From an uncultured Actinomycetota bacterium (GTDB lineage Bacteria > Actinomycetota > Acidimicrobiia > Spongiisociales > UBA4744), in the NCBI GenBank assembly GCA_963723165.1, contig CAVRPP010000003.1:413717-477716 (forward strand): 64,000 nt of DNA, read 5' to 3'. This document shows positions 3,146 through 54,972 of this stretch, piece by piece. The position numbers and the translations under genes were made by a program. The number at the start of each line of letters is the position of its first letter. Positions within the stretch are counted from its first letter, which is position 1. The notes below the pieces were generated by a model. It was given only the letters and a program-made list of their open reading frames with translations. It had not been told where the DNA came from and ran no database searches.

Positions 3146-3318
3146 GGAACGCGACTACGGTCCCCGTCTGCACATGCCCGGCCGAGGGTCTGCTCCTTGA
3201 AAACCCACGTCAAGTTTTCTCGCCGACCGCCGATGACTGTTGCGTGGCAGGACCTGCCACAGGCTGGGAGGCTTGATCGAGCACCTTTATTGGGTGGTCG
3301 AATGAGCTGAGGAGTGAC

Positions 3319-6336: not shown

Positions 6337-7608
6337 ATGAGGAGACTCCACGGAGATGAGAGCGGCGCCGTTCTGGTCGTCGTTGCCGTTGCGATGTTGC
6401 TCGTGTTGGGAGTCGCTGCCTTGAGCGTCGATGGAGGCCGCGGACTCAATGAGGAGCGCGACTCGCAGAACGCCGCAGACCAGGCATCCCTGGCCGCTGC
6501 GTGGGCAGAGTGCAACGGCCGGGATCCTGTGGCGGCCGGCATCGCTTCGGCCGCTGCCAACGGGTTCGATAACAACGGCACAACGAACTCCGTGACGCTC
6601 ACGGACCTGGGCAGCGGTCGATTCGAAGTCGTGGTCTCGTCGACCATCGATGGCGGGTTTGCCAAAACGGTGGGGGCCAACACGATAACCGCCAGTTCCC
6701 AGGCCGTTGCCAGTTGCAGCATCACTACCGGATCGGGCGGTTTTGCCCTATTCGCAGGCTTCACCACGTGCGGGCCTGTCGACCTCAGCCTCACCGGGTC
6801 TTCGCAAACTATCAAAGGCGCGATCCATTCCAACGACCAGTTGAAGATCAACGGCAATGTCGCCTCGCCGAGCGAGGTCTGGGGACCGGTCACGGCCGCG
6901 GTCTCGGTGCAGCACTCCGGGGTCAACTTCTTCGAAACAGACGGGACCCCGTCGGCCCCCGGCACCAACCCAACGCAGGGCGTTGCCCTGGTTCCGCCCT
7001 ATCCGGTCAAGTATAAGATCGGCGACTATGCCCCCGGCTCGACCATCGCCTCCGCCGCCGGCAGCGATTATTTCGATTTCACCACCAACCAGAGCTGGTC
7101 CGATGTCAGTCTCGCCTCAGGCCTCTACTACGTCGACGGCAACGTCAGCCTCAACCGGGTGAGCGGCGAGCATGTAACCATCGTCGCTACGGGGCAGATC
7201 AGCCTGACGGGGACGAATACCGTCAACACCATCGTGGACTCGAGCGATCCGAACTACGGCCCGTACGATCCAAGCGGGCTGGCCCTCTTCAGTACCTACC
7301 GGAACGCAACAGCGTCGTGCAACCGCGATGCCATAACGTGGAGTGGCTCCAATCACGTCTGGAGCGGTATTCAGTATGCGCCCTTCGGCAACATCGATAT
7401 GAGCGGCGCCGACAATTCGACGTTCGACGGCAGCATCATCGCTTACAACATCAAGCTGAGCGGTTCTGCCATCAACATCACCTACAACGACGACTTCGAC
7501 GGCAACCCGAGCCACGGTGATCAACATCGAGGAGTAGCCGCCGGGAGCCTTCAAGTGTGGCAACGACAGCCGAAAACCCCTCATTCCGTCTGGTCATTCT
7601 GCCGATAA
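6337..7608 (+). CDS. TadG-like Flp pilus assembly protein
   Basis: The internal ATG at 6337 (MRRLHGDESGAVLVVVAVAMLLVLGVAALSVDGGRGLNEERDSQNAADQASLAAA) follows GGATGGGGATGGA. The Tad_N motif is present. The upstream part of the ORF overlaps the previous gene and is probably not translated. Confidence 0.7.
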   Translation: MRRLHGDESGAVLVVVAVAMLLVLGVAALSVDGGRGLNEERDSQNAADQASLAAAWAECNGRDPVAAGIASAAANGFDNNGTTNSVTLTDLGSGRFEVVVSSTIDGGFAKTVGANTITASSQAVASCSITTGSGGFALFAGFTTCGPVDLSLTGSSQTIKGAIHSNDQLKINGNVASPSEVWGPVTAAVSVQHSGVNFFETDGTPSAPGTNPTQGVALVPPYPVKYKIGDYAPGSTIASAAGSDYFDFTTNQSWSDVSLASGLYYVDGNVSLNRVSGEHVTIVATGQISLTGTNTVNTIVDSSDPNYGPYDPSGLALFSTYRNATASCNRDAITWSGSNHVWSGIQYAPFGNIDMSGADNSTFDGSIIAYNIKLSGSAINITYNDDFDGNPSHGDQHRGVAAGSLQVWQRQPKTPHSVWSFCR

Positions 7609-9890: not shown

Positions 9891-10771
9891 ATGAAAACCC
9901 TGCCCCACCTCGTTACCGCCCTCATCTCCCCCTTCACCAGATCCGGCCACATCGATCTCGACGCCCACCGCCACAACCTCGAGGCCCTCAACCAACAAGG
10001 AATCAAGGGGTTTCTGATCGGCGGATCGACCGGGAGAAGGACCCTATCTCGAAACCGGCGACCGCCTCTTCCTGGTCGACGCCGCCCGACGTACATTGGG
10101 GAAACGGCCTTTCCTGCTCGCCGGTATCGCCGGCGAATCTTCTCGCTCCGCCCTTGCCCAGACCGAAGAAGCCACCGAGGGCGGTGCCGATGCAGTGCTG
10201 GTGGTGACCCCCACCACGATGGTTCGCGGCAACCACTCAGCAGTGGCCGCGTATCTTCGAAGATCTGGCAGACGCCGCCCGTGTTCCGGTCTTTCTCTAT
10301 TCCGTCCCGGCGGTGACCGGCTACACGCTCCCCGTGGAAACGGCGATCAAACTGTCCCGGCATCCCAACATCACCGGCATGAAGGATTCAGGCGGCGATC
10401 CGGTGGCCATGACTCGTCTTGCAGAGCAAACCGTCGACGACTTCGTCCTGATGACGGGTTCGTCGAAAGCGGTGAGGCTCTGCATGACTGCGGGAGCCCA
10501 TGGAGCCATCACCGCCAGCTCGAACTACCTGCCGGAACTCACCGGCCGGGTGGTGACGGCCGCCCGCAGAAACCTCCTGACCGCCGGCGAACTCCAGTCG
10601 ACACTGACCAGACTCTCGACCGCGGTCGAGGCGTACCGGGTGCCCGGGGTCAAAGCCGCAGCAGGAATGACCGGGCTCCGACCGGGACATCTGCGCAAAC
10701 CGCTCCGACCCGTGCCGCCCAAGGACAAGAGAGCAATCGCAAAGGTGCTGAAAGACGCCGGAATTCTCTAG
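9891..10771 (+). pseudogene. Dihydrodipicolinate synthase (DapA) family gene carrying two +1 frameshifts
   Basis: The N-terminus LVTALISPFTRSGHIDLDAHRHNLEALNQQGIKGFLIGGSTG and the C-terminus (...ITGMKDSGGD...SNYLPELTGRVVTAARRN...) are DapA-like. The reading frame changes at about 10033 (GGGAGAAGG) and about 10258 (TATCTTCG). Removing one base at each site restores ...GSTGEGPYLETGDRLFLVDAA... and ...AAYFEDLADAARVPVFLYSVPAVTGYTLPVETAIKL.... Confidence 0.6.
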
Positions 10772-31305: not shown

Positions 31306-31779
31306 GTGTCGGTACAAGACACGTACATCGACTCGTTCACCGAGTTTGTGGAGAGCGCAGAACCGAGGTTGCGGCGGGCCCTGGTGGCTCGTTACGGCTA
31401 CCAGGAAGGCAGAGAAGCGGTGGCAGAGGCCCTCGCCTATGCATGGGAGCACTGGGAGCGGGTCGCCGGTATGGAAAACCCGGTTGGCTACCTCTACCGA
31501 GTGGGACGCACCCGGGGAACCTGGGGATTTCGGCGACCGGTGCAACTCCCCCGCGCGGAGGCTTCGGCCGACCCGTCCTGGTTCGAGCCGGCGCTCCCCG
31601 CGGCAGTTGAGCACCTCCCGAGCAAACAACGGACCGCCGTGATGCTCGTCAAAGCCCACGGCTACACGTACGACGAAGCCGCCGACGTCATGGGCATTGC
31701 CCGGACCTCGGTTCAGAAACATGTTGAGCGGGCCCTGCAGAAACTCCGCAAAACCCTTGAGGTGACAAGCGATGCATGA
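31306..31779 (+). CDS. ECF-type RNA polymerase sigma factor
   Basis: GTG start 5 nt after GGAGG. Region 2 (YLYRVGRTR) and region 4 HTH (SKQRTAVMLVKAHGYTYDEAADVMGIARTSVQKHVERALQKLR) are present. Confidence 0.7.
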   Translation: MSVQDTYIDSFTEFVESAEPRLRRALVARYGYQEGREAVAEALAYAWEHWERVAGMENPVGYLYRVGRTRGTWGFRRPVQLPRAEASADPSWFEPALPAAVEHLPSKQRTAVMLVKAHGYTYDEAADVMGIARTSVQKHVERALQKLRKTLEVTSDA

Positions 31780-33238
31780 CCTTGACGATCAACTCCGCGA
31801 GTTCGGTTCATTCGTAGATGACGCCGTCGAAACCGTGCGAGCGACGGAGGTCACGATCCCTCACGCCACGCCGGTTCACCAACCGCCGCGGCACCGCCTA
31901 GCGATCGCCGGCGCAGCCGCCGCCGTGGTCGTGCTATTCATCGCTGCCGCGGTTGTGCTTGGCCCCTTCGGGTCGGAAGCGCCCTATGTGGAGGAACCGA
32001 TCACGGCTTCTATCACAACCACCACGAGCGAGGCTGCGGCTCCGGCATCGCCGGCGATGTCGTGGACCCGCGTCGAGTCGGATGCGTTCGGTGGTTCCGA
32101 CGACCAGTTGATCAGAGACATCGCGATCGGCGGACCCGGGTTGGTGGCCGTCGGAGCAGACGGCTCGGGTGGCGATCTGGATGCCGCCGTGTGGTACTCG
32201 ACCGACGGGCGCGTTTGGACGAGAGTCCCGCACGACGAGCTGGTCTTCGGAGGACCCGGAGACCAATACCCGATGGCAGTGGCGGCAGGCGGGCCGGGGT
32301 TCGTGGCTGTAGGAGATGACAGCACGCCGGATGGAACAGCCGGCATCACGGCCGTTTGGACCTCTGAGGATGGGATCACCTGGAGCCGAGTTCTCCACGA
32401 CGAAAGTGCTTTCGGCGGCGAGGAACAAGTCAACGTCTTCATGAAGGATGTCACCGCTTTCGGGTCGGGTCTCGTGGCCGTGGGGTTGGAATGGAGGGAC
32501 AGCCAGGCAGACGCGGTGGCTTGGACCTCTCCCGACGGGATCATCTGGGAGCGAGTCCCGCCCAACGAGACGGTATTCGGTGGGCCCCACGATCAGGCCA
32601 TGTGGGCAGTGGTGCCAGCCGGACCCGGACTGGTAGCGGTCGGACAAGGCGGTAACATCTTCAACGCTGGCCCCGACCAACCGGCGGCCGTTTGGGTGTC
32701 GACCGACGGGCGCGACTGGTCCCGGGTGCCCGACCAGGCAGCGCTCCTCAGCGGATTCTCACAGCAAGGTGGCGAAGGCCCTGCAGGGTTCACCGGGGAT
32801 TGGGCCCGCATGGACGATGTGGCGATCGGCGGTTCCGGCGTTGTGGCGGTTGGCCGAGTCGGCAGATGTGAGGTTCAGTGCGATGAAGACGGCGCCGCCT
32901 GGACCTCCACCGACGGTATCACCTGGCAACGGAGCCTCGTCGAAACAGTCGACGGTGTCCGAATCGACGACATGTGGGCGGTGGCCACCCTCGATGATGT
33001 GCAAGTCGGTGTCGGCAACGGCTCGGACAGCAACGGGGAATTCGGACCAGCCGTGGCATGGACATCGAACGACGGAGGCGACACCTGGAGTCGAGTTCCC
33101 CACAGCGGCACCACCTTTGGAAAGATCTCCGAAGGGCCCAACTTAATGTTTGCTGCGGTCGAGTTCGGACCCGATCTGATCGTGGTGGGGAGTTGGGGAT
33201 CGAATGCCGCGGTGTGGATAGCAACCATCGAAGAGTGA
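31772..33238 (+). CDS. Putative anti-sigma factor: single-pass membrane protein with an extracytoplasmic BNR (Asp-box) repeat beta-propeller-like domain
   Basis: Start overlaps the sigma gene stop (ATGCATGA). A TM helix at residues ~52-75. There are at least 7 repeats of the S-x-D-G-x-x-W-x-R-V type (YSTDGRVWTRV, TSEDGITWSRV, TSPDGIIWERV, VSTDGRDWSRV, TSTDGITWQRS, TSNDGGDTWSRV). Confidence 0.55.
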   Translation: MHDLDDQLREFGSFVDDAVETVRATEVTIPHATPVHQPPRHRLAIAGAAAAVVVLFIAAAVVLGPFGSEAPYVEEPITASITTTTSEAAAPASPAMSWTRVESDAFGGSDDQLIRDIAIGGPGLVAVGADGSGGDLDAAVWYSTDGRVWTRVPHDELVFGGPGDQYPMAVAAGGPGFVAVGDDSTPDGTAGITAVWTSEDGITWSRVLHDESAFGGEEQVNVFMKDVTAFGSGLVAVGLEWRDSQADAVAWTSPDGIIWERVPPNETVFGGPHDQAMWAVVPAGPGLVAVGQGGNIFNAGPDQPAAVWVSTDGRDWSRVPDQAALLSGFSQQGGEGPAGFTGDWARMDDVAIGGSGVVAVGRVGRCEVQCDEDGAAWTSTDGITWQRSLVETVDGVRIDDMWAVATLDDVQVGVGNGSDSNGEFGPAVAWTSNDGGDTWSRVPHSGTTFGKISEGPNLMFAAVEFGPDLIVVGSWGSNAAVWIATIEE

Positions 33239-33263
33239 GTGGCCCCCAAGAAGGAGGGCAACG

Positions 33264-33833
33264 ATGAAGAAACTGATGATGATGCTGGTAGTTATCGCAC
33301 TGCTGATGTCGTTTCCGGTTGCGGCGGTGGCAAAGAAACCGGCACAACCGCCGGGCCAGGAGCCGTTCCCAGGTCTGACATGTCAGGCGTGGTTCGAGTC
33401 TCATGATGATACCTTGTGGCAAGTTGGCATCCCAGGCGATTTCCCAGTCGACGACGGCGATTTCCGGGTGACCTTGACCCCGGCTCAACCTGCAGCGTGC
33501 ATAGATGTGACATCAGCAGTGGCAGGTGTGTGGAATTTCGAGATTGATGCTGTAAAGGTGGCGTCGTTCAACATGCAGATCAAGGACAGCGTTCCGGGCG
33601 ACATGTGCTGGCGTGACGCGTGGAGTAACAAGAAGGCGAACCTCCCCGACTTGCTGAGCACGCCCGAGATACCCATAGCAACGATCAACGCCTGCCCAGG
33701 AGATGACTTCACAGACGGTGGCTATGCCGAGCCCAAACCAAGCATCGACCACCCCCTGGTCTTTGGGGTGGCCTACTCCCCGGAGAGGCGCGCCGAAAAC
33801 AGCAGCCTGACTATCACCGTGACTCTTCCGTAA
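33264..33833 (+). CDS. Secreted hypothetical protein (cleavable signal peptide; locally lower GC)
   Basis: MKKLMMMLVVIALLMSFPVAAVA signal peptide. 4 Cys residues. No family recognised. Confidence 0.5.
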   Translation: MKKLMMMLVVIALLMSFPVAAVAKKPAQPPGQEPFPGLTCQAWFESHDDTLWQVGIPGDFPVDDGDFRVTLTPAQPAACIDVTSAVAGVWNFEIDAVKVASFNMQIKDSVPGDMCWRDAWSNKKANLPDLLSTPEIPIATINACPGDDFTDGGYAEPKPSIDHPLVFGVAYSPERRAENSSLTITVTLP

Positions 33834-36372: not shown

Positions 36373-37251
36373 TCAGCGGACGGTGACTTCGACCGATCCG
36401 TCGGGCCGCACGACCCGACCTTCTTCCTCATCGGCCGTCGGATCAGGTGGTGACGTCCGCATCGTGAAGCAGAAGCGGCTTCCGGTCGGGAACCGATGCT
36501 CGTACCAGAGGTCGCCGCCCATCGCCCGCGCCAGTCGCAGAGCGATCGGGAGACCCAGCCCTATCCCCTTGTCGGAACGGGCGTCGCCTTTCGAAAGCTG
36601 CTCGAAATGGGTGAACACCCGATCGACATCCTCCTCCGGGATCCCCGGGCCGTTATCGGAAACCACGACGAGATAGAACTCTCCGTAGGGACTGCCCTCG
36701 ACGAGGACCTGGTCGCCGCCGTACTTGTGAGCGTTCTCCACCAGATTCCGCAGCACCTGCTGGACCCGCCGCTCGTCGGCAAACACCGAAACACCCCCGG
36801 GAATGGCCACAGCGGCTTCGCGGGCCGTTCCCGGAGGCAGGATCGCATTGGTCACATCGTGAGCGACTTCGGACAGGTCAAACATCCCCAAGTCCAGCCT
36901 GAGCCTGCCCGCTTCGAGCCTGGGGATCACCAGTACGTCCTCAACCAGCTCGGAGAGGTGTACGGCTTGTTTGTTGATGATGGTCAGGAATTCATCGACC
37001 TCTTCGCCGGGCAGGTTCTTCCACGATTCGAGGAGGGTATCGGTGAATCCGGCGATCGAAGTCAAAGGGGTTCGCAGCTCATGGCTGACCATAGAAACGA
37101 ACTCGTTCTTCATCCGCCTGGCGCGATCGGCCGACTGGGTAGCGAATTGCTCCCGCCCCCGGGCTGCCCGAACCGCCCGGATGGCGGCAACGACGGCAAC
37201 CAACGCTGCCACTACGGCACTGCCACCTATCAGTTCAGGCAGGTGCTCCAT
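36373..37251 (-). CDS. Sensor histidine kinase (HisKA + HATPase_c), one N-terminal TM helix
   Basis: H-box VSHELRTPLTSI. N-box VLRNLVENAHKYG. G-boxes DNGPGIP / GLGLPIA. Confidence 0.8.
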   Translation of the reverse strand: MEHLPELIGGSAVVAALVAVVAAIRAVRAARGREQFATQSADRARRMKNEFVSMVSHELRTPLTSIAGFTDTLLESWKNLPGEEVDEFLTIINKQAVHLSELVEDVLVIPRLEAGRLRLDLGMFDLSEVAHDVTNAILPPGTAREAAVAIPGGVSVFADERRVQQVLRNLVENAHKYGGDQVLVEGSPYGEFYLVVVSDNGPGIPEEDVDRVFTHFEQLSKGDARSDKGIGLGLPIALRLARAMGGDLWYEHRFPTGSRFCFTMRTSPPDPTADEEEGRVVRPDGSVEVTVR

Positions 37252-37378
37252 AACGCTTCAGCCTCCAGCTGAGCAGCCGGTTTGCTGCCCATATGAGCTA
37301 TCGACAGGTATCCCGGCGAGGTTGAGCCGTTCGAACCGACTCCCCCGCGTCGGCGGGCAGAGAATGGGTGCCCGGCGA

Positions 37379-38377
37379 CTAGGAATCTGGATCCCCGTAC
37401 AGGGAGGACAGGCTGAGGCGGGCTTCCTGCTCCAGGAGCTTCTGATGGTGATAGGCGGAATCGACAACCGCCGCCAACGGGAATTCCACCATTCGCAGCG
37501 TCCGCGCCACCTGGGGGGTGAAGATCCCCGGCCGTCGCGAACCGATGGCCAGGATGCCGAGCACCTGCCCGCGAGATCGCAAAGCCATGGCGAAAAAGGA
37601 AGGCCATCCGCCGCCCGCATCAGCGTCGGAGAACTCCTGGCTGCCGGAGCGCCACACTCCCAACTCCTCCGGACTGACCGAAATGGAAGCTAGCTGCTCG
37701 AGGTGACCGGCGGCCAGGGCACGGAAGTGATCGAAATCCGGCCTGGAAAGGGGGGTATCGACGCGGATCGCCAGGCGCCGCTCCGCAGCCAGCGCAATCC
37801 CGGCCAGGTCGTAGTCGACGAAGCGGCGGAGGATCAACAGCGATTCCTGCACCGTCGTTGGCAAATCCATGGCGCGAGTTGCCATGGTCACGATGTCATT
37901 GACGATGGTGGCATCGAAGAGTTTGCGGTCCAGAAGCTCTGTTACCCGGGCCAGCACGTCCACCTGGTCGAGTTGCTGAGCCTCGACTTCGCCGGTCGTC
38001 AATTCCGACAGGGCTCGCGTTGCCCGGGCTGTGCGGATCGCTGCCAGCAATTCCTCCCCGAGCGACTCCTTGGTCAAGTAGCCGTCCGCACCCGATTTCT
38101 CCGACCAGTAGCGGTCCTCGGCAGAGTCGAGAGCGGTCAAGATCAGAATCGGTATGTGGGCAACCGACCAGTCTTCTTTGATCAGGCGACACGCCACATA
38201 GCCGCTCATACGAGGCATCTTGATGTCGAGGAGCACCAGGTCCGGCGGTTCTGAGTAAAACTTCTGAATCGCCTCGATGCCGTCCTCAGCAGTGGTTACC
38301 TCATAGCCGGCCTCGCGGAGCAGCGATCCCACTGCCGCTCTGATGACCGGACTGTCGTCGGCAACCAGGATCCTCAC
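37379..38377 (-). CDS. Response regulator: receiver domain fused to a GAF-like domain
   Basis: MRILVADDSPVIRAAV...DLVLLDIKMPRMSGY...ILTA is a REC domain carrying the Asp. The C-terminal half has a GAF-like pattern. Confidence 0.7.
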   Translation of the reverse strand: MRILVADDSPVIRAAVGSLLREAGYEVTTAEDGIEAIQKFYSEPPDLVLLDIKMPRMSGYVACRLIKEDWSVAHIPILILTALDSAEDRYWSEKSGADGYLTKESLGEELLAAIRTARATRALSELTTGEVEAQQLDQVDVLARVTELLDRKLFDATIVNDIVTMATRAMDLPTTVQESLLILRRFVDYDLAGIALAAERRLAIRVDTPLSRPDFDHFRALAAGHLEQLASISVSPEELGVWRSGSQEFSDADAGGGWPSFFAMALRSRGQVLGILAIGSRRPGIFTPQVARTLRMVEFPLAAVVDSAYHHQKLLEQEARLSLSSLYGDPDS

Positions 38378-40554
38378 CGGTTCACCTCGGTTCGTTCGCC
38401 GGGTTGGGGCACGCTGCGCATGTCGAGCAGAGAATTGAGGGTGGTCGCCAGTAAACCCTGCCGGAGGTCGGCTTTGTCGAGGTAGGCGTTGACTCCAGCC
38501 GCCCAGGCTCTGGCCTGGTCCTTCTCTTCGGCAACTGCCGAAACCATCACTACCGGGAGAGAGGGGAGGATGTTGCGAACGGCTTGAACCAACTCGACAC
38601 CGTCCGAACCCGGCATGGCGTAGTCAACGACGAGCGCATCGAAGCTCTCCTCCTGAAGCTTGGCCAGACCTTCCTCGGCGTCGGCTGCCACCAGAGTCTC
38701 AAATCCTTGACCTGTCAGAACCGAGCCGACCAGCTGACGGGCTCCGGCCGAGTCGTCCACCACCAGTACCCGCGGTCGCGACATGACCGGGGTCGGCAGC
38801 GATCGTACGCGGTCACCCAGGCGATTAGGTTCGACGACGACGACCACATCTCCCCCGCCGAGCACGGCTGCGCCGGTCAGATGCGGGGTTCCGGCCAGCA
38901 CCGGACCCAGACCTTTGACGGCCACCTGGCGTCTGCCCACGATCCGGGGCACCGTGACGGCTACAAGACCGGACCGGGTAGCCAATACGAGGACTTCGTT
39001 GACCGGTTCGGTCTCCGGGAGGCCAACGGCCGATGCGAAAGACGAAATCGGCAGGCGTTGTCCCTGGTGGATGAGCTCCATCCGTTCTTTCCCGGGCCGT
39101 ACTTCGGCCCCTGCCAGAGCGAATGCGGCCACGACGGCCGCCGCCGGGACGCCCCACTGACGTTCCTCAGCGGCCAGGAGCAACATATCCTGCAGCGCCC
39201 ATGAGGCCGGGAGCGTCAGCATCACCGACGTACCAAGGCCCGGACGTGACTCCACCGTGATCCCGCCGTTCAACATCTCAGCCGTTTCGGCGACGAGCGC
39301 GAGGCCTGCTCCGTCGCCACTCAGATCGGTTGCTTCGATCGACGTCGAAAATCCTCCGCCGTAGAGAAGCCGGGTGAGTTCGCTTTCCGAAGTTTCTTCA
39401 TCAGCTGGGATCAATCCCCGTTGAGCAGCGGACCGTCGTACTTCCTCCCAATCGATCCCGGAACCATCGTCCTCAACTGTGATGATGAGGTTGTTCTTGG
39501 TGACTTGAGCCCGGACGGCCAGGGTGGCCGAAGCGGATTTTCCTGCGGCTTCCCGCACCTCCGGCGCCTCAACGCCGTGATCAATTGCGTTTACCAACAG
39601 GTGTCGCAACGGTTCTCGGAGATGCTCGATGATCTGGCGGTCTACCTCGACCTCGTCGCCCGCCAGCTCAAATCTGATTTGCTTCCCCGTACGACGGCTC
39701 AAGTAACGGACGAACTGGTGGAATGTGTCGGTGATCTCCGACAGAGGAGCCGCAACCAGCTGCAATGCCCGCATCTGCAGATCCTCAACGGCCAGATCCA
39801 GGGTCTCAACCGCAGATTCCCAACTGGTGGCCAGGGATGCAACCTCTCGCGGATTACTCGAAACAGCGAAGCGAAGAGCTTGAACTGCGGAAGCCAGCGC
39901 AGCTGCGTCGAGCCGTACTTCCGCGGCCCGATTGATCAAGCGGTAGAGCCGGGTGGTCTCGACCCGCGTGGCCGGGCCCACCAGACCGGACTCAACGGAG
40001 GAAAGCAGGCCACCGAGATCGAGAAGCTCGGGGCTTCCCATTTCCGGGACCGGACGAGCCGGAGCGGGGGACGGGGGCGATGGTTGCACCGTCGGGGCAG
40101 CCTCGGCCGGTGGCGGGGGCATTGCCTCTGCCCGGTGTGGGGCGGCCGCAGGTCGGGTCGGGGGTGCTTCCGGAGCGCCGAGGAAATGTTCCAGCGCCTC
40201 CACGGCGCTGCGCAGGCCCGCAGGCCGTCCGTTGATTCCTTCGTCCATGGCCCCGAGAAACTCTGCGGAAACGGCCCGCAATAGTTCACCGAGCTCGGAA
40301 CTCGGTGCCAGAACGCCCTCAGAGATATCCCTCCACGTAGCTTCCAGCACCCGGGCGGCTTCGCCCATTTCAACAAACCCCATGACCCGCGAAGACCCCT
40401 TGATCGTGTGGGCGTCGCGAAACAAGATCGAAAACAGGTCGGTATCCAGTTGACCGGCCGACATCGCGGTCGATCCCTCCACCAGATTTGCCGACCGCTG
40501 CGCAACTTCTTCGCGGAATATCGCCAGGAGCTCTGCGTCGTTGCCCAACTCCAA
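38374..40554 (-). CDS. CheA-like hybrid histidine kinase (Hpt, dimerisation, HATPase, CheW-like domain, C-terminal receiver)
   Basis: Hpt motif FRDAHTIKGSSRVMGF. HATPase motifs HLLVNAIDHG and DDGSGID. A CheW-like domain follows. The C-terminal REC is VLVVDDSAGARQLV...DALVVDYAMPGSDG. Confidence 0.8.
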   Translation of the reverse strand: MELGNDAELLAIFREEVAQRSANLVEGSTAMSAGQLDTDLFSILFRDAHTIKGSSRVMGFVEMGEAARVLEATWRDISEGVLAPSSELGELLRAVSAEFLGAMDEGINGRPAGLRSAVEALEHFLGAPEAPPTRPAAAPHRAEAMPPPPAEAAPTVQPSPPSPAPARPVPEMGSPELLDLGGLLSSVESGLVGPATRVETTRLYRLINRAAEVRLDAAALASAVQALRFAVSSNPREVASLATSWESAVETLDLAVEDLQMRALQLVAAPLSEITDTFHQFVRYLSRRTGKQIRFELAGDEVEVDRQIIEHLREPLRHLLVNAIDHGVEAPEVREAAGKSASATLAVRAQVTKNNLIITVEDDGSGIDWEEVRRSAAQRGLIPADEETSESELTRLLYGGGFSTSIEATDLSGDGAGLALVAETAEMLNGGITVESRPGLGTSVMLTLPASWALQDMLLLAAEERQWGVPAAAVVAAFALAGAEVRPGKERMELIHQGQRLPISSFASAVGLPETEPVNEVLVLATRSGLVAVTVPRIVGRRQVAVKGLGPVLAGTPHLTGAAVLGGGDVVVVVEPNRLGDRVRSLPTPVMSRPRVLVVDDSAGARQLVGSVLTGQGFETLVAADAEEGLAKLQEESFDALVVDYAMPGSDGVELVQAVRNILPSLPVVMVSAVAEEKDQARAWAAGVNAYLDKADLRQGLLATTLNSLLDMRSVPQPGERTEVNR

Positions 40555-40636
40555 GTTGAACCTCTTTCACTTTGAACGGTCGCCTGTTCGGCATTACAGA
40601 TATCGGTCGACCACTCGAGCTACTTGAGAGAAAGGG

Positions 40637-42208
40637 CTATTCCCACTCAATCGTGGCGGGGGGTTTTGACGAGACGTCATAAGCGACCCGGTTGATGCCC
40701 GGCACCTCGTTGATCACACGGCTGGAAATCCGCTCCAAGACGTCGTAAGGCAACCGGGCCCAGTCCGCCGTCATGGCGTCATCGCTGGTCACGGCCCGGA
40801 CGATCAACGGGTACGCGTAGGTTCGTCCGTCCCCCTGCACACCAACGGTCTTGATGGCCGGAAGCACTGCGAACGATTGCCAGAGTTGGCGATAGAGGCC
40901 GGCCCGGCGCACCTCCTCCAGGACGATGCTGTCGGCGGCGGCCAGCAGTTCGAGCCGTTCCCGGGTGACTTCGCCAATGATGCGAACAGCCAGACCGGGA
41001 CCCGGAAACGGTTGACGCCAGACGATCTCTTCTGGCAACCCCAGCTCGCTCCCGATCGCCCGCACCTCGTCCTTGAAGAGGTCACGAAGCGGTTCCACCA
41101 GCTCGAACTTCATGTCTTCGGGAAGGCCGCCGACGTTGTGGTGACTCTTGATCCTTGCCGCGTCTTTCGTGCCCGACTCGATGATGTCGGGATACAGAGT
41201 TCCCTGCACGAGGAAGTTCGTGTCGGTCAGGTCGGCGGCTACTTCTTCGAACACGCGAATGAAGGTCTCGCCGATGATCTTCCGTTTCGACTCCGGATCC
41301 GTTACACCCGCCAGTGCTGCGAGAAACCGATCTTGCGCCTGGACATGAACCAGGTTGATCTGGAAGGTGCGCCGGAAGGTGTCCTCGACCTGCGCGGCTT
41401 CGTCGGCCCGCAGCAGCCCATGATCGATGAACACACACGTCAGCTGATCACCAACCGCATGGTGAACAAGAGCGGCGGCGACCGATGAGTCGACTCCACC
41501 GGACAGTCCGCACATCACCTTCTCCGATCCCACCTGCCGCCGGATGGCGTCCACGGACTGTTCGATGATCGAATGATGGGTCCAATTCGGTCGGAGCCGG
41601 CAAGCGTCGAACAGGAAATGCTTGAGGATTTCGGTACCGCGCGGTGTGTGCGCCACCTCAGGATGAAACTGAACGCCGTAGGTGCGCCGGGTCCGATTCT
41701 CCATGGCCGCTACCGGGGATCCGGCCGTTGAGGCGACCACCTGGAAGCCCGGTGGCGCCTCGACCACCGCGTCGCCATGGCTCATCCACACATCCTGGGT
41801 TTCCGGGAGTTCGGCGAACAGGCCTCCTCCGTCGGAAACGGTCAGCTCGGTCTTGCCGTATTCGGCGCTACCGGTGCGGGCAACCCGGCCACCCAGGCTA
41901 TGAGCGAGCAGTTGGTGGCCGTAACAGATTCCGAGCATCGGGATCTCGAGGTCCAGGATGTCCGGATCGATGTCGTACGCATCGTCGGCATAGACCGAGG
42001 CCGGTCCTCCCGACAGGATCAGGCCGGCAGGGCGCCGGGCTATGATCTCGGCCGCCGTGATATCGCGGGGCACGATTTCCGAGAGCACATGGGCTTCCCT
42101 CACCCGCCTTGCGATCAGCTGGGCGTACTGCGCTCCGAGGTCGACGACGAGGACCCGGTCGAAGTCTCCGGTCGAAGCTTGTCCAAAGGAACCGTCCCGG
42201 GTCGTCAC
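40637..42208 (-). CDS. guaA: GMP synthase (glutamine-hydrolysing)
   Basis: GATase domain ([10 protein letters not shown]). ATP-PPase SGGVDSSV P-loop. C-terminal dimerisation domain. Confidence 0.9.
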
Positions 42209-45562: not shown

Positions 45563-46945
45563 TCAGGTTGCAGCGGCGGAATTGCCGCCGCCAGGGAATA
45601 GCGTCTTTCGTGAGTCCCAGAAAACAGCACCCAGGATGATGAGCCCACCGACGCCGATGATCCATTTCAGGTACTGATCCTCGAAAGCTTCGCCGCAAGA
45701 AGCGCACTCCCTATTGACGGGAATGGCGCCGATTCTCCCGTTGGCCACAGGCGCAGTGAGATTGGAGTCAACGATGGAGGTCGACGTCGTTTCTGCGGGT
45801 ATGAGTGCCATGTCTGTAGGGGTGTGATCCGTCCCATGACAGCTCGTGCAATCAACCCGACCGAGATGAGGACTATGACAAACAACACACTCCGCATCAA
45901 CAGCCGTAGGGGTGTGATCCGTCCCATGACAGCTCGTGCAATCAACCCGACCGAGATGAGGACTATGACAAACAACACACTCCGCATCAACAGCCGTAGG
46001 GGTGTGATCCGTCCCATGACAGCTCGTGCAATCAACCCGACCGAGATGAGGACTATGACAAACAACACACTCCGCATCAACAGCCGTAGGGGTGTGATCC
46101 GTCCCATGACAGCTCGTGCAATCAACCCGACCGAGATGAGGACTATGGCAAGCAACACACTCCGCATCAACAGCCGTAGGGGTGTGATCCGTCCCATGAC
46201 AGCTCGTGCAATCAACCCGACCGAGATGAGGACTATGACAAACAACACACTCCGCATCAACAGCCGTAGGGGTGTGATCCGTCCCATGACAGCTCGTGCA
46301 ATCAACCCGACCGAGATGAGGACTATGACAAACAACACACTCCGCATCAACAGCCGTAGGGGTGTGATCCGTCCCATGACAGCTCGTGCAATCAACCCGA
46401 CCGTTGTGAGAGATGTGGCAAGCAACACACTCCGCATCAACAGCCGTAGGGGTGTGATCCGTCCCATGACAGCTCGTGCAATCAACCCGACCGTTGTGAG
46501 AGATGTGGCAAGCAACACACTCCGCATCAACAGCCGTAGGGGTGTGATCCGTCCCATGACAGCTCGTGCAATCAACCCGACCGTTGTGAGAGATGTGGCA
46601 AGCAACACACTCCGCATCAACAGCCGTAGGGGTGTGATCCGTCCCATGACAGCTCGTGCAATCAACCCGACCGTTGTGAGAGATGTGGCAAGCAACACAC
46701 TCCGCATCAACAGCCGTAGGGGTGTGATCCGTCTCATGACAGCTCGTGCAATCAGCCCGACCGTTGTGAGAGGTGTGGCAAGCGACACACGCGAAATCAG
46801 CAGGTCCGGGATCCTGGCGAGGACCTCTACTCAGTTGGACGGCCAAGTCACCGCCCGGTATGTCGGCGAGTACCGTCGGCTGGCCAAAAAGTAAGAAGCC
46901 AAGGCCAGCCAGCAGGATGGAGCCGATGGTGAGGCGCTTGTTCAC
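45563..46945 (-). CDS. Membrane-anchored tandem-repeat Cys/His-rich protein with 22 CxxCH motifs (candidate giant multihaem c-type cytochrome, or a novel metal-binding repeat protein)
   Basis: N-terminal signal peptide MNKRLTIGSILLAGLGFLLFGQPTVLA. Eleven 30-aa repeats (DAECV[AV]CH[IS][SP]H[NL]GRVDCTSCHGTDHTPTAV), each with 2 CxxCH. C-terminal TM helix KWIIGVGGLIILGAVFW. This is the only frame with start, signal peptide and TM anchor. Other long ORFs on both strands are periodicity artefacts. Confidence 0.6.
   Translation of the reverse strand: MNKRLTIGSILLAGLGFLLFGQPTVLADIPGGDLAVQLSRGPRQDPGPADFACVACHTSHNGRADCTSCHETDHTPTAVDAECVACHISHNGRVDCTSCHGTDHTPTAVDAECVACHISHNGRVDCTSCHGTDHTPTAVDAECVACHISHNGRVDCTSCHGTDHTPTAVDAECVACHISHNGRVDCTSCHGTDHTPTAVDAECVVCHSPHLGRVDCTSCHGTDHTPTAVDAECVVCHSPHLGRVDCTSCHGTDHTPTAVDAECVACHSPHLGRVDCTSCHGTDHTPTAVDAECVVCHSPHLGRVDCTSCHGTDHTPTAVDAECVVCHSPHLGRVDCTSCHGTDHTPTAVDAECVVCHSPHLGRVDCTSCHGTDHTPTDMALIPAETTSTSIVDSNLTAPVANGRIGAIPVNRECASCGEAFEDQYLKWIIGVGGLIILGAVFWDSRKTLFPGGGNSAAAT
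45815..46810. repeat. Eleven near-identical 90-nt in-frame tandem repeats inside the CxxCH gene, falling into two subfamilies
   Basis: Units start at 45821, 45911, ... 46721. Units toward the gene's 3' end (45821-46360) carry CCGAGATGAGGACTATGACAAACAAC (CVVCHSPHLGRV). Units toward its 5' end (46361-46810) carry CCGTTGTGAGAGATGTGGCAAGCAAC (CVACHISHNGRV). Only a few substitutions separate units. Confidence 0.9.
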
Positions 46946-47503
46946 TTGTTTGTCCCCAGGCAGTCATCGCCGGTACTGCCGGTTGGAACAGGAGACTCAC
47001 GGTATCACCGCGGGAGGAATCTCCCATGCCGGCCGTCTCACCGGACGCGGAACCCCATTGTTCGACTACGCCACCAACCTTCGTTCACCCTCACACTAGC
47101 GATTCGACAAACCGTCCCCGACCGTGAGAGTGACCCGGAAGGGCCGGTCGGGGAACGCGCACCCCCAAACATGATTGGCACAGCATCCGAAACCGCGGCC
47201 CCACCCCCAGCACCCCATGTGCCGTTATGTGCGGGTGTCCGGGCCCAAAGACCCTCGCTGTCCCAGCCCATGTTTCACCACGATCCGGATAACGGCGGTC
47301 GATTGCGTTCATTTCGAGTACTAGCGGGACCGTCTCACCTGGAACGATCGATGCCCTGCCAGAACCGGGAGCCCCGCACTAGAAGTGCCGTTATGTGCGT
47401 CCCGTGGGTCGAATGGCCCTACCCTCCAGATCGACCTTCCTTGCACTCTTGGAAGCATTATTGACCGGGCTGAGGGCATGGCAGGTGAGGAGGTAACGAC
47501 GCA

Positions 47504-47938
47504 ATGGAGATTGTCTGGGGTGTCGTCCTGATTGTTCTGGGTTTGCTGGCCTGGGGAGGGCAAGGTTTGTCCTATTTCGCTCCCAGCACCGCAGAGAAGC
47601 TGCATCTCACGGAGGGGGAAGAGAAGGTCGAGCCGGTTTTCTGGGCTGATGGCCAAGGTGAAGCGCTCTGGGACTTCTTGACCCTCTGGATCCTGGTGGT
47701 GGCAGGAGTCCTCCTCCTGTTGGATCACGACGCCTGGCCCTATTTCGGTCTGGTCGGCGGAAGCGTCTACGTCTACTTCGCAGGGAGAGGAATCCTCACC
47801 CGACTGGAGATGCAACGCAGCGGATTCCGCATAGGTGACCCAGGCAACGTCCGCCTCGGACTCATCATGCTCGCTGTATGGGGGGTGGTCGGTCTGATCA
47901 CCATCGTCACCGCAGCCACCACTTTCTCCGGCTCATGA
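47504..47938 (+). CDS. Hypothetical small membrane protein (144 aa, 4 TM)
   Basis: Hydrophobic segments MEIVWGVVLIVLGLLAWGG, LWDFLTLWILVVAGVLLLL, LIMLAVWGVVGLITIV. Paralog of the next gene. Confidence 0.5.
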   Translation: MEIVWGVVLIVLGLLAWGGQGLSYFAPSTAEKLHLTEGEEKVEPVFWADGQGEALWDFLTLWILVVAGVLLLLDHDAWPYFGLVGGSVYVYFAGRGILTRLEMQRSGFRIGDPGNVRLGLIMLAVWGVVGLITIVTAATTFSGS

Positions 47939-47966
47939 GCGACCCGTCAAGCAGAAGGTAGCAACC

Positions 47967-48401
47967 GTGGAAGTGACGACAGCGACCTGGCTGATAGCAA
48001 TTGCTGGACTTGTTCTGATACTCCTCCTTGGTGCGTTCCAGTTCGTGGCCGTGTTACGCCCCCGGTCCGATTGGACGGTCCAAAACGTTTACGGAGGTGA
48101 CCCGAACAGCACCGACCCCAAGGCGTACTTCGCCTACAACCAGGGGTACGCCTGGGCCGACGTATTCCTCTGGGCACCGATCCAAATCGCAGGCAGCATC
48201 GGCATGCTCCTTGGCGAGCGGTGGGGTTTTCTACTCGCCCTTGTCGCCTCTGTCCCATACGTATACACAGCCATCACCATCTACATCTGGGATCGCGACC
48301 TCGGTTCCCGCAAGAACACAATCGGCGGCTGGGTGCTCTGGGGGATCTGGCCGGTATTCGGACTCATCCAGGGTATCTACAGCCTTCTCAGACTCCTCTA
48401 A
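47967..48401 (+). CDS. Hypothetical small membrane protein (144 aa), paralog of 47504-47938
   Basis: Same length and TM topology as the upstream gene, with a conserved YVY motif region. Confidence 0.5.
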   Translation: MEVTTATWLIAIAGLVLILLLGAFQFVAVLRPRSDWTVQNVYGGDPNSTDPKAYFAYNQGYAWADVFLWAPIQIAGSIGMLLGERWGFLLALVASVPYVYTAITIYIWDRDLGSRKNTIGGWVLWGIWPVFGLIQGIYSLLRLL

Positions 48402-51685: not shown

Positions 51686-52280
51686 TTATGGATCGAAGAG
51701 GTCGCGGGGCGGAAGGCGAGTCACCGGTGGTTCCAGCCCGACCAACTGCCGGACCATGTGGGCGGTTGCACCCCACAGGACCTCTCCTTCGATGTCGAAA
51801 AACCAGACCTTGTGGTTCCGCCACATCTCAAAGCGCCAGTTGAGCGGCTCGGCGAAGATGTCGACGGCCGGTTCGAGAATCTTGTCCACCTCGCGGGGAG
51901 ACGGCATCAACTCCGGTATCCCGTTGATCCACCCGACTACCGGAACGACCAGCAGCGAGTATTCGATCGTATGAATGGCCGGCAGGAACCCGAGCACTTC
52001 AACCGACGCCGGGTTCAACCCAACTTCCTCTTCGGCTTCTCGCAGGGCTGTTCCGACCGGGCCCCCATCGCCCGTGTCCGGGCGCCCTCCGGGAAAGGCC
52101 AGGTGGCCTGCGTGGGTAGGCATGGTCATGGGTCGTTTCGTCAGAATCACCCGGGTCACGCCACCCCCGTCGTCGTAGAGGGGCACCAGCACCGCAGCCT
52201 GCGGCAATTCACCCGGTGGTGGGGGCTCACTCTGGATCCCCGGAAACCGGCCCAAGATATCGTTCACCCGAACATGGTAC
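51686..52280 (-). CDS. NUDIX hydrolase (CoA pyrophosphatase-like)
   Basis: Nudix box GGRPDTGDGGPVGTALREAEEEVGL. Start uncertain; the ORF extends to 52336. Confidence 0.7.
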
Positions 52281-52302
52281 GACGCCGATAGTCTGAGCGG
52301 AC

Positions 52303-52917
52303 ATGGATGACCTCTCGACCGACCCACGATTCTCACGCCGGTTCATGTTGCGACCGTTCAAACGTCGCGACGCCGACGATATGACCGAGGCCGTGCAGGC
52401 ATCCCAACTCGAACTCAACGAGTGGCTGCCGTGGGCTCATCTCGGCTACACGAAGGGAGATGCCACCACCTACATCCGCGACAGCATCAAGTCCTGGCGG
52501 GAAGAACGCGCCTACGACCTGGCGATCAGGAAGACCGATGAACCGGGTCGTCACATCGGCAACATCTCAGTGTGGTTCGTCTCCCGATCATTCAAAACCG
52601 GCGAGGTCGGGTACTGGGTGCGTACGGACGAAACCTCTCGAGGAGTCGCTACCGAAGTGACGGCCCGGGCGCTGCAGATGGCATTCGAAGAACTCAAGAT
52701 GCACCGGGTGATTCTTCGGATCGCCACCGGGAACCGCGCCAGCGAACGGGTCGCAGAGAAGCTCGGGTTCTTCCGGGAGGGGATTCTGCGCGAGGAGATC
52801 AAGGTTCGTGGCAAATGGCTCGACCACTCGGTCTGGGGTCTGCTCGAACATGAGTACAAGAAGAACCGGGGCAGGTACCAGGACCTCATCGGGGCAACAG
52901 ATCAAGCCGTCGAATAG
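52303..52917 (+). CDS. GNAT family N-acetyltransferase (RimJ/RimL-like)
   Basis: FMLRPFKRRDADDMTEAV...IGNISVWFVSRSFKTGEVGYWV...ILRIATGNRASERVAEKLGF. Confidence 0.8.
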   Translation: MDDLSTDPRFSRRFMLRPFKRRDADDMTEAVQASQLELNEWLPWAHLGYTKGDATTYIRDSIKSWREERAYDLAIRKTDEPGRHIGNISVWFVSRSFKTGEVGYWVRTDETSRGVATEVTARALQMAFEELKMHRVILRIATGNRASERVAEKLGFFREGILREEIKVRGKWLDHSVWGLLEHEYKKNRGRYQDLIGATDQAVE

Positions 52918-52932: not shown

Positions 52933-53178
52933 TTATTCTTCATTCGTTGCTCGTGCCTCGTGGTTTCGCTTCCAGCGGCTGATGGCCGACCAGCGGGACA
53001 AGACGGAGCCGGGGATGACGCCCAACAGGTGGACCGGGAGAAAGTACTCGAGCGGTGGGTTGCCACCCGAAAACTTGACCACCAACCACACAACCCACAC
53101 CAGAAGACCCAGCAGGATCAGCCGGCGACCGATCCGCTCGAGGTTTGAAGCGTCGGCTCTCTTGATGGTGGCGGTCAC
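52933..53178 (-). CDS. Hypothetical small membrane protein
   Basis: An 81-aa ORF with a TM segment LILLGLLVWVVWLVVKF. Weak call. Confidence 0.35.
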   Translation of the reverse strand: MTATIKRADASNLERIGRRLILLGLLVWVVWLVVKFSGGNPPLEYFLPVHLLGVIPGSVLSRWSAISRWKRNHEARATNEE

Positions 53179-53271
53179 GGAGACATTATGTCAGGTCGAT
53201 GCAGACCGAATGCCGACACAACGCACCGTCGGACCAGGGAAAGACGAGCAACCAAGAACGCCCGTACACAA

Positions 53272-53298
53272 AGGAGCGGGACCCCGAAGGGCCCCGCT
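53272..53298. terminator. GC-rich hairpin downstream of groEL
   Basis: GAGCGGG-ACCCCGAAGGGC-CCCGCTC forms a 7-bp GC stem about 30 nt after the groEL stop (minus strand). Confidence 0.35.
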
Positions 53299-53324
53299 CT
53301 CTCGATTCGACTCTCGGTTGTGAC

Positions 53325-54972
<1,648 letters not shown>

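Follow-up and report, generated by a model that had tools for sequence, protein, structure and literature searches.

In the Che3 system of Rhodospirillum centenum, the CheA-receiver hybrid CheA3~REC passes phosphate to the receiver domain of another kinase, CheS3, and its own receiver is a phosphate sink (PMC3868531). The reported or predicted targets of the sigma-28 (FliA/SigD/WhiG) regulons of Actinomycetota include chemotaxis and type IV pilus genes, and the promoter consensus is T(A/C)AA or CTCA, a spacer of 16–17 nt and a GCCGATAA-like element (PMC8325347, PMC12871210); the main text of PMC12871210 makes no mention of Acidimicrobiia. Flagellar gene clusters are frequent in certain actinobacterial classes, Acidimicrobiia being one of them, and non-FlgFG lineages typically have F5 chemotaxis systems (PMC10746217).

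The cluster described here lies in a 64 kb stretch of DNA (the window) and consists of three signalling genes flanked by pcrA and guaA:

38374-40554, minus strand, cheA~REC, an ORF of 726 aa
37379-38377, minus strand, REC-GAF, an ORF of 332 aa
36373-37251, minus strand, the membrane-anchored HisKA kinase gene, an ORF of 292 aa
34053-36296, pcrA, flank of the cluster
40637-42208, guaA, flank of the cluster

The three signalling ORFs are intact, and each catalytic His, Asp and ATP-binding residue is kept. Their positions and strand agree exactly with the initial annotation, as do the housekeeping neighbours. The genes had also been described as overlapping, which is correct for cheA and REC-GAF (the REC-GAF start lies on the cheA stop, a 4-nt overlap that is the most frequent layout among REC-GAF-bearing loci) but not for REC-GAF and the kinase gene, which lie 127 nt apart. 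Between the genes, no intrinsic terminators are predicted.

Like Che3, the cluster combines a CheA-receiver hybrid with a second HisKA-type kinase (PMC3868531). Further likenesses, which for the window are proposals, would be a CheA receiver acting as a sink, phosphorylation by CheA of a receiver that controls the second kinase, and a non-flagellar function. In Che3, however, the receiver is part of the second kinase itself (REC-PAS-HK), whereas REC-GAF and the kinase of the window are separate proteins and the kinase has neither a sensor nor a receiver domain; Che3 also encodes MCP3, two CheW proteins, CheB, CheR and CheY3, none of which has a counterpart near the window cluster.

The three products had initially been read as a CheA-type kinase with Hpt, HATPase, CheW-like and C-terminal receiver domains, a receiver fused to a GAF-like domain, and a membrane HisKA/HATPase kinase, and domain searches and models bear out all three assignments. 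In CheA~REC, Pfam identifies Hpt (residues 8-94), HATPase_c (312-450), CheW (457-580) and Response_reg (596-695) domains, the match to P3-P4-P5 of T. maritima CheA has E=1e-52, and the AF2 model gives the order P1, disordered linker, P3, P4, P5 and REC. The linker between P1 and P3 is Pro/Ala-rich, P3 is the dimerisation hairpin, and a P2 domain is absent. The phosphosites are His49 in P1/Hpt and Asp644 in the C-terminal receiver. All 79 CheA~REC sequences keep His49, the residues of the N/G1/G2 boxes and the Asp/Ser/Lys of the receiver unchanged. The CheW-like P5 is as conserved (0.66) as the catalytic P4 (0.67), which argues for a coupling partner persisting somewhere.

REC-GAF has a strong Response_reg match (E=7e-26; phosphosite Asp51). 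Its own GAF match falls under the threshold (E=0.006), and the GAF assignment comes from GAF_2 matches in 17 of 24 orthologues (best E=1e-11) together with the fold, the AF2 model (pLDDT 85) aligning from end to end with the REC-GAF module of the dual-sensor kinase 6OAQ (Foldseek E=4e-13). The REC domain, the linker helix and the C-terminal helix with its terminal ..LEQEARLSLSSL are conserved, and the GAF core is the variable, least conserved portion. The dual-sensor REC-GAF-HK kinase (6OAQ/6OAP/6OB8) has a REC-GAF fold like the one predicted here and a long final helix that would lead towards the kinase in the fused protein, but the identity is only 17–18%, the window REC-GAF is a separate polypeptide, and the window kinase starts with a membrane anchor instead of continuing the REC-GAF helix. 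There is no sign of a bilin or other ligand.

The small kinase contains HisKA (47-115) and HATPase_c (159-265) domains and a single N-terminal hydrophobic helix (mean Kyte-Doolittle hydropathy 2.28, residues 6-24), a segment that recurs in nearly all of the kinase orthologues listed. After about 5 extracytoplasmic residues the chain is predicted to cross the membrane as one helix and to continue with a short charged helix, HisKA and HATPase_c; it has no sensor domain. The H-box, VSHELRTPLTSIAGF, includes an HExxT phosphatase motif, and DHp conservation is 0.83. Across 73 species, with or without REC-GAF, the recognition helix does not vary, and the partner of the kinase must therefore be common to both groups of clades; the CheA receiver is its sole co-inherited receiver. 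We infer only from this co-inheritance which way phosphoryl groups would pass between the small kinase and the receivers.

Up to 541 species genomes contain a relative, and the best 80 were inspected. In the Acidimicrobiia loci that could be assessed, the upstream neighbour is guaA (68 of 68) and the downstream neighbour is pcrA (50 of 50). Four gene sets occupy this slot: CheA with the kinase (45 of 64 assessable loci), CheA with REC-GAF and the kinase (17), CheA with REC-GAF (2) and, in more distant lineages, CheA alone. CheA~REC is the constant member. Some lineages lack the kinase and some lack REC-GAF, so both are dispensable for CheA function. The fixed arrangement in every assessable locus rules out a che operon fragment broken off in one particular genome.

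The closest relatives outside the slot belong to full operons with MCP, CheW and CheR (and CheB in two of three), which identifies the window cluster as a reduced chemosensory system. In these Wsp-like or alternative-cellular-function operons (L093, L089) the kinase is 34–35% identical and also has Hpt, P3, P4, P5 and REC without P2. One of them, L089, has the order MCP-CheW-CheA~REC-REC-GAF-CheR, with a homologous REC-GAF, 38% identical to that of the window over its full length, directly after the kinase gene. REC-GAF is the ancestral operon partner of CheA~REC, and the cluster is, judged by these sequence relationships, derived from a complete operon of the L089 type. MCP, CheW and CheR are encoded in the Wsp-like operons, some of which add CheB or a GGDEF output; in the window cluster all of these components have been lost or have moved elsewhere, and a sensorless membrane kinase has been gained.

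The claim that no MCP, CheW, CheB or CheR lies nearby withstood wider searching. Queries for MCP, CheW, CheR and the CheB catalytic domain gave no tblastn match in the window and 83 loci (1.46 Mb), Pfam scans of about 60 window ORFs found none of the four, and none is present within 10 kb of the cluster in 80 related genomes; the same queries recover the MCP and CheW of the positive control L089 but missed its CheR, and the CheR negative rests mainly on Pfam. The window contains no further receivers or histidine kinases (tblastn) and no flagellar genes, and no output domain or target is identifiable in the three proteins.

Sigma-28-type promoter motifs are present at the cluster and in a Tad pseudopilin array of the window:

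40600..40628, minus strand, sigma-28 (FliA/WhiG)-type predicted promoter motif of cheA, CTCAA-N16-ACCGATAT
37298..37326, minus strand, second, weaker sigma-28-like motif, of the kinase gene, CTCAA-N16-GTCGATAG
7580..7608, plus strand, sigma-28-like motif of the Tad array, CTCA-N17-GCCGATAA, before the TadE-like gene 7677-8255
3210..3236, plus strand, second, tentative sigma-28-like Tad motif, TCAA-N15-GCCGATGA, 83 nt before the TadE-like gene 3319-3768

The cheA motif begins 9 nt past the stop codon of guaA, and about 45 nt lie between its end and the TTG start codon of cheA. A TCAA/TTCA-N16-GCCGATAA-like element (GCCGATnn) occupies the same position before cheA in 65 of 71 assessable species loci, and the regions upstream of control genes contain a sigma-28-type motif in 0–6 of 56–69 loci. 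Such a motif is also present in L087 and L091, which are more distant, and, as a further likeness, before the outgroup operon L089. The kinase-gene motif is the only CTCAAY-N16-18-CGATW match in the window; its CTCAA element has a comparable position in about 18 of 20 loci having both REC-GAF and the kinase and is missing there from most loci that lack REC-GAF. The cluster appears to be transcribed from a predicted sigma-28 (FliA/WhiG-family) promoter, and the 64 kb window itself contains no sigma-28/WhiG sigma factor gene. The cheA motif was assessed against the consensus of the Actinomycetota regulons (PMC8325347, PMC12871210) and fits it; the predicted targets in the window differ in being a receptor-less CheA cluster and Tad pseudopilins.

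With moderate confidence, we interpret the cluster as a reduced, vertically inherited Che-like phosphorelay, fixed between guaA and pcrA in Acidimicrobiia and apparently driven by sigma-28, that would operate as follows. CheA would autophosphorylate at His49 and transfer phosphoryl groups to Asp51 of the translationally coupled REC-GAF, the output, which would switch as a dimeric helical-spine module, and to its own receiver at Asp644, which would be a sink or provide feedback. The sensorless kinase/phosphatase would act on the CheA receiver as a reset or second input, and a multi-step relay among the three proteins is plausible. The strong constraint on P5 makes it probable that CheA remains coupled to a CheW/receptor-type partner whose gene lies elsewhere. 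The module would be co-expressed with other sigma-28 targets, seemingly including, in these genomes, the Tad pseudopilin genes, which suggests a likely role in a motility or surface-appendage programme.

The Pil-Chp system controls type IVa pili, and it is possible, if doubtful, that the Tad (type IVc) pilus is the output here, with the relay controlling its assembly or activity. The motif at 7580..7608 is a possible co-regulated partner of the cluster, and comparable motifs precede TadE genes in L084, L085 and L086, making four genomes with the window and representing both clades; about one relaxed match per 64 kb is expected by chance. Type IV pilus genes are under WhiG control in Rubrobacter and are predicted to be so in other Actinomycetota (PMC8325347, PMC12871210), and the array and cheA share a contig, 20–28 kb apart, in three genomes. 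However, this proximity, which the initial annotation had considered suggestive, carries no weight: a distance of 25–28 kb is no evidence in itself, since core synteny is conserved throughout the 50 kb (sdh, dapA, mdh, icd, folD, purHN, sucCD, tal). Independent though indirect evidence for the proposed Tad link comes from the sigma-28-type motifs at cheA, at the kinase gene and in the Tad arrays of four genomes, but a shared sigma factor does not amount to a regulatory link between relay and pilus. Moreover, the nearby Tad genes are pseudopilins only, with no secretion ATPase or platform genes found there, and the best Tad motif of the window overlaps the stop codon of the preceding ORF.

It is unlikely that CheA has become receptor-independent, in genomes without MCP or CheW, being set through its own receiver by the membrane kinase, or by P5 bound to a non-canonical partner, with REC-GAF as sole output. 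Such a CheA would suit the controlled search negatives for MCP and CheW in the window and within 10 kb in 80 genomes, the successively smaller gene sets ending at CheA~REC alone and the invariant kinase recognition helix, which would fit an unchanging partner, for instance the CheA receiver, but P5 is conserved as expected if canonical coupling persists, the CheA-alone lineages have no local input and need one from elsewhere in any case, and the frequent flagellar clusters of Acidimicrobiia and the typical occurrence of F5 systems in non-FlgFG lineages also speak against it (PMC10746217). Those clusters and the conserved P5 would suit an ordinary accessory kinase of flagellar chemotaxis, one that plugs into the receptor arrays of a complete F5-type che/flagellar regulon elsewhere and tunes flagella, and late flagellar and chemotaxis genes are classic sigma-28 targets (PMC8325347, PMC12871210). 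We nonetheless regard this as improbable: the CheA~REC hybrid, the missing P2, the REC-GAF partner and the lack of a single-domain CheY resemble alternative-function systems, as do the closest relatives, Wsp-like and other CheA~REC-hybrid operons; F5 CheA has an additional CheW domain, unlike the cluster CheA; and the window has no flagellar genes, its sigma-28-like motifs outside the cluster lying in the Tad array, before a GNAT gene and within sucD. A link to the housekeeping flanks, for example a GAF domain that senses a guanine nucleotide and a relay that tunes guaA/guaB3 or pcrA, is scarcely credible. It would accord with the invariant adjacency to guaA and pcrA in all assessable loci and with the lack of predicted terminators, yet the cluster has its own conserved predicted promoter right after the guaA stop codon, the three proteins contain no DNA-binding or other output domain aimed at guaA/guaB3/pcrA, the poorly conserved GAF core argues against a conserved ligand pocket, and most lineages with the same flanks lack REC-GAF.

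The initial annotation had overlooked the promoter motif, the conservation across the clade and the variation in gene content. The leader of the kinase gene contains one further feature:

37263..37297, minus strand, small hairpin in the predicted kinase 5′ UTR, partially pairing with the Shine-Dalgarno GGAGG

This putative hairpin is a weak candidate of the close clade only, with 11 predicted pairs (8 sequences) and one A-U to G-C compensation in 3 sequences.

The three minus-strand open reading frames described in the initial annotation were found at exactly the positions it gave, and the cluster is bordered, as it had stated, by pcrA and guaA.

38374-40554, minus strand: cheA~REC, a CheA-type kinase with a fused receiver (REC); 726 aa, with Hpt, HATPase_c, CheW-like and receiver domains, all above Pfam thresholds
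37379-38377, minus strand: REC-GAF, a receiver-GAF protein; 332 aa, with a strong receiver domain and a sub-threshold GAF match of its own (Pfam, E=0.006)
36373-37251, minus strand: a HisKA/HATPase kinase; 292 aa, in which one hydrophobic helix at the N-terminus is followed by about 25 charged residues and the H-box

For the first of these, the proposed CheA-type composition (Hpt, HATPase, CheW-like and C-terminal receiver) is confirmed by Pfam, and the product matches the P3-P4-P5 region (dimerisation, ATPase and CheW-like domains) of Thermotoga maritima CheA with E=1e-52. In its AlphaFold2 model (pLDDT 77.6) P1 (Hpt) is a bundle of helices, joined by a disordered linker rich in Pro and Ala to the P3 hairpin, after which come P4, a P5 made entirely of beta structure and the receiver; a P2 domain is absent from both the Pfam domains and the model. 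The Hpt (P1), P3, P4 and P5 domains that characterise CheA in a Che-like minimal core are thus all present. His49, the N, G1 and G2 boxes, and Asp600/601/644, Ser672 and Lys694 are invariant in about 75 species, and P5 is as well conserved as P4 (0.66 vs 0.67). In all components of the cluster the phospho-acceptor His and Asp residues and the ATP-binding boxes expected of a two-component phosphorelay are conserved.

The genes had been described as overlapping, which is true of cheA~REC and REC-GAF (the 4-nt overlap of the REC-GAF start with the cheA stop is the commonest arrangement) but not of REC-GAF and the kinase gene, which are 127 nt apart. The GAF-like assignment likewise needs qualification: the window protein itself falls below the Pfam cutoff, but GAF_2 is matched by 17 of 24 orthologues and the whole of the predicted structure (pLDDT 85) aligns with the REC-GAF sensor module of 6OAQ, a dual-sensor histidine kinase of known structure. 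Asp7/8/51, Thr81 and Lys103 are invariant in the alignment (about 75 species for catalytic residues). Conservation is seen in the receiver, in the linker helix and in the C-terminal helix (..LEQEARLSLSSL), and the GAF core is variable, which suggests that REC-GAF works as a helical-spine switch and not through a conserved ligand pocket.

The third product has the HisKA and HATPase domains and the one hydrophobic helix of the membrane kinase originally proposed, and an N-terminal hydrophobic segment is present in nearly all of the orthologues listed. Since this helix is the only feature besides HisKA and HATPase, the kinase is membrane-anchored and without a sensor domain. The H-box and the N, G1 and G2 boxes are conserved, and the H-box includes an HExxT motif, which in HisKA kinases is associated with phosphatase activity. 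The recognition helix VSHELRTPLTSIAGF is invariant with or without REC-GAF in the locus; as this holds in both clades, the partner must be common to both, and the sole receiver co-inherited with the kinase is that of CheA. The proposed partner follows from this co-inheritance and not from the specificity residues, which were compared by eye with those of HK853/RR468 and PhoR/PhoB. A hairpin in the 5' UTR of the kinase gene was set aside, one compensatory pair in 8 close sequences being too thin a support.

All of the CheA homologues come from Acidimicrobiia metagenome-assembled genomes. One genome per species was scanned, of which up to 541 have a relative, and the best 80 of these were examined. 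Among them guaA is directly upstream in 68/68 assessable loci, pcrA is downstream in 50/50, and the order trpS-Rce1-guaB3-guaA-cluster-pcrA is retained throughout. The contents of the slot between guaA and pcrA vary: CheA~REC with the kinase is found in 45 of the 64 assessable loci, CheA~REC with both REC-GAF and the kinase (the window type) in 17/64, and CheA~REC with REC-GAF in 2/64, and lineages at 37-39% identity have CheA~REC alone. CheA~REC is therefore the constant element, and REC-GAF and the kinase are accessory.

In L018 (8727-12089) and L021 (15975-19265), loci from other genomes, pcrA encodes about 1100 aa, vs about 745 aa elsewhere, with an intein-like insertion after the DEAD-box region. 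In the related locus L027 an extra stand-alone Hpt (P1-only) open reading frame (7936-8319) lies upstream of a full cheA~REC, and REC-GAF is present and the kinase gene absent. Repeat-rich inserts are located downstream of cheA in L077 (12000-13770; complete chromosome OZ244166.1), where the insert is 1.8 kb and has a repeated peptide-coding unit, and in L087 (12430-12600), with short CGTCTCA/CGTCGCA-type tandem repeats.

The initial annotation had noted that MCP, CheW, CheB and CheR are lacking locally, and this stands: six-frame searches and Pfam analysis of about 60 open reading frames revealed no MCP, CheW, CheR or CheB catalytic domain in the window. In the 64 kb window, and in 80 genomes up to 10 kb to either side of the locus, tblastn detected neither an MCP signalling domain nor CheW, and in the window it detected no other receiver or histidine kinase. 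The MCP, CheW and CheR queries were E. coli sequences, together with an MCP tip consensus. As a positive control they recover the MCP and CheW of L089, an out-of-slot relative, but miss its CheR, so that the CheR negative in related loci is a weak one. As Wuichet and Zhulin are cited in PMC3868531, the Che-like minimal core consists of CheA, CheW and MCP, with CheR and CheB auxiliary. Acidimicrobiia belong to those actinobacterial classes in which flagellar gene clusters are frequent, and the non-FlgFG lineages typically have F5 chemotaxis systems (PMC10746217); receptors and CheW may well be encoded elsewhere in the genome. The phrase 'orphan CheA' occurs in no paper that we found, the literature matches being only to 'chemosensory'.

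The relatives outside the slot point to an origin. When 1.84 billion representative proteins were searched, the bit scores graded from the slot family into generic CheA~REC hybrids, and three of the nearest out-of-slot relatives, which were examined, are all in complete chemosensory operons, arranged MCP-CheW-CheA~REC-REC-GAF-CheR in L089, MCP-CheB-CheR-CheA~REC-REC-(Hpt-REC-GGDEF)-CheW in the Wsp-like L093, and REC-CheV-CheR-CheW-CheA~REC-CheB at the third, the P0417 locus. Over its whole length the L089 REC-GAF shares 38% identity with the window protein, and because this homologue sits beside CheA~REC there, the CheA~REC/REC-GAF pair is ancestral. The cluster in the window is a chemosensory system whose receptor, coupling and adaptation genes were lost or relocated and which acquired a sensorless kinase.

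The cluster shares with Wsp-type systems just the CheA~REC hybrid; these also have an MCP, CheW, CheR, CheB and a REC-GGDEF output, and in contrast to L093 no GGDEF, MCP, CheW, CheR or CheB is found near the cluster. The Pil-Chp system is built on a multi-Hpt kinase, ChpA, with PilG/PilH receivers and PilI/PilJ (CheW/MCP), whereas the window kinase has a single Hpt and 726 aa and neither CheW nor MCP is nearby; ChpA-sized multi-segment proteins occur solely among distant matches at about 30% identity. In the Che3 cascade of R. centenum a second kinase carries the receiver that CheA phosphorylates; the window's second kinase is without a receiver, and its receiver-GAF protein is a separate gene that is missing from 45/64 loci. 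The most fitting description of the cluster, which is intact and deeply conserved, is a new and reduced variant among alternative-function chemosensory systems.

Cross-locus comparison of intergenic spacers brought a promoter motif to light. The flagellar sigma-28 consensus is TAAA at -35 and GCCGATAA at -10 (PMC8325347), and the actinobacterial WhiG2 and WhiG1 consensus sequences are T(A/C)AA-N16-GCCGATAA and CTCA-N16-17-GCCGAACT, respectively (PMC12871210). The criteria taken from these papers are a -35 of T(A/C)AA or CTCA, a 16-17 nt spacer, and a -10 of GCCGATAA with a central CGA, all within 200 nt of a start codon (PMC12871210, PMC8325347). The predicted sigma-28 promoter upstream of cheA has these sequence features and agrees with all three consensus sequences, and a weaker match precedes the kinase gene.

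40628-40600, minus strand: sigma-28-type motif upstream of cheA, CTCAA-N16-ACCGATAT
37326-37298, minus strand: weaker sigma-28-like motif upstream of the kinase gene, CTCAA-N16-GTCGATAG, the sole such match in the window

The form T(C/T)(A/C)A-N16-GCCGAT(A/G)N is present in 65 of 71 assessable species, immediately behind the guaA stop and about 50-67 nt before the cheA start, and 19 of the 65 motif-bearing species have a perfect GCCGATAA. Under the same criteria, the 320 nt upstream of control genes (56-69 loci) gave 0 for guaA, 1 each for guaB3 and trpS, and 6 for pcrA; a strict scan of 80 loci gave 41/75 matches upstream of cheA. Of the 20 loci with both REC-GAF and the kinase, about 18 have the CTCAA of the kinase gene at a comparable position, where most loci without REC-GAF lack it. 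The motif is also found upstream of cheA in distant lone-CheA lineages and of the MCP gene in the outgroup operon, and sigma-28 control therefore looks ancestral. The association of the cluster with a sigma-28-type promoter in Acidimicrobiia is previously unreported.

A generic sigma-70 scan of 33.5-45.6 kb returned no promoter matches, terminator-like sites in the same interval are no more frequent than expected by chance, and Rfam and tRNA scans of the window gave no matches. There is no sigma-28-type gene in the window, the sole sigma factor being of the ECF type (31306-31779). Lying 5 kb downstream, it was considered as a regulator of the cluster and rejected, as it is within an insertion absent from the close relative L001 and the motif is of the sigma-28 and not the ECF type. 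This insertion (31306-33833, plus strand), between pcrA and an MFS_3 transporter gene, contains three genes, encoding the ECF-type sigma factor, a 488-aa protein with an N-terminal hydrophobic segment, many 'W.S.DG..W' repeats and no Pfam match, and a 189-aa protein with a hydrophobic N-terminal segment that is possibly a signal peptide.

The Tad pilin array reported near the start of the window is real, with seven TadE/TadG-type genes that have significant Pfam matches and one weak TadG-like open reading frame (441-8255). Between it and the cluster lie about 28 kb of central-metabolism genes. Its proximity, which had been thought suggestive, carries no weight by itself, because core synteny is conserved over the entire block in both clades. 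Relaxed sigma-28-like matches in the window number nine (seven distinct sites), vs about 1.2 matches expected by chance, and three are in the Tad array.

3210-3236, 7550-7576 and 7580-7608: sigma-28-like matches in the Tad array

Four others (two sites) are the predicted cheA and kinase promoters, one is upstream of a GNAT gene and one is inside sucD. In each of the Tad arrays of three other genomes, one such motif precedes a TadE gene by 43-142 nt, and WhiG controls type IV pilus genes in Rubrobacter, as is predicted for several other actinobacterial families (PMC8325347, PMC12871210). Given these motifs and this precedent, it is a reasonable hypothesis that the cluster is co-regulated with the Tad pseudopilins; such co-regulation is not evidence that the relay controls the pilus.

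The motif was also observed at other positions. In the related locus L086 a perfect sigma-28-type motif, TCAA-N16-GCCGATAA (12429-12456, plus strand), lies next to the Tad array, upstream of uncharacterised small genes, one of them with a faint DUF732 match. In the window, TTCA-N17-GCCGATAG (52263-52291, plus strand) ends 12 nt before the start of the GNAT acetyltransferase gene (52303-52917) and is kept in the close relatives L004, L005, L006 and L046.

A mechanism can be proposed in which phosphorylated CheA would feed both REC-GAF, taken as the output, and its own receiver, as a sink or feedback element, with the sensorless kinase/phosphatase acting on the CheA receiver and P5 still coupling to a partner encoded elsewhere. 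A different, further-reaching reading, of a class-wide CheA~REC that operates without MCP or CheW, is gated through its own receiver by the kinase/phosphatase, signals through REC-GAF to Tad pili and is expressed under a WhiG/FliA-type sigma factor, strikes us as unlikely. Were the receptor-independent reading true, a chemosensory array would here have been reduced naturally, step by step, to a minimal kinase; if receptors are truly absent, P5 must have a new partner, which would be of interest to the chemotaxis field. With the complete MCP-CheW-CheA-REC-GAF-CheR operon at one end and CheA~REC on its own at the other, the series could reveal which parts of a chemosensory kinase stay useful when no receptor array is encoded locally. 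Acidimicrobiia occur widely, hardly any have been cultured and their signalling is little known; this cluster ranks among the regulatory modules that they inherit most stably. The predicted sigma-28-type promoter provides a handle on the timing of its expression, and brings a class outside the PMC12871210 survey into the diversification proposed for the actinobacterial WhiG/FliA regulon.

The three focal genes are intact. Elsewhere in the window groEL (53130-54951, minus strand) has a frameshift near 53770, such that the open reading frame at 53764-54951 encodes the N-terminal 395 aa and the rest is in another frame, reflecting either an assembly error or a pseudogene. A TadG-like gene (8289-9864, plus strand) is split into three open reading frames in three frames, corresponding to a single 531-aa one in the related locus L084, and dapA (9891-10771, plus strand) into 141-aa and 152-aa open reading frames; several frameshifts in one window suggest long-read assembly errors. 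Between trpS and leuA (45563-48401), where L001 is empty, there are a 460-aa open reading frame with weak, compositionally driven Cys-rich Pfam matches (Zn_ribbon_11, Cytochrom_c3_2) and two adjacent ones of 144 aa each (47504-47938 and 47967-48401) with no Pfam match. Finally, a 389-aa protein with an eCIS_core domain match is encoded among central-metabolism genes (12793-13962, plus strand), and in the same place in L084.
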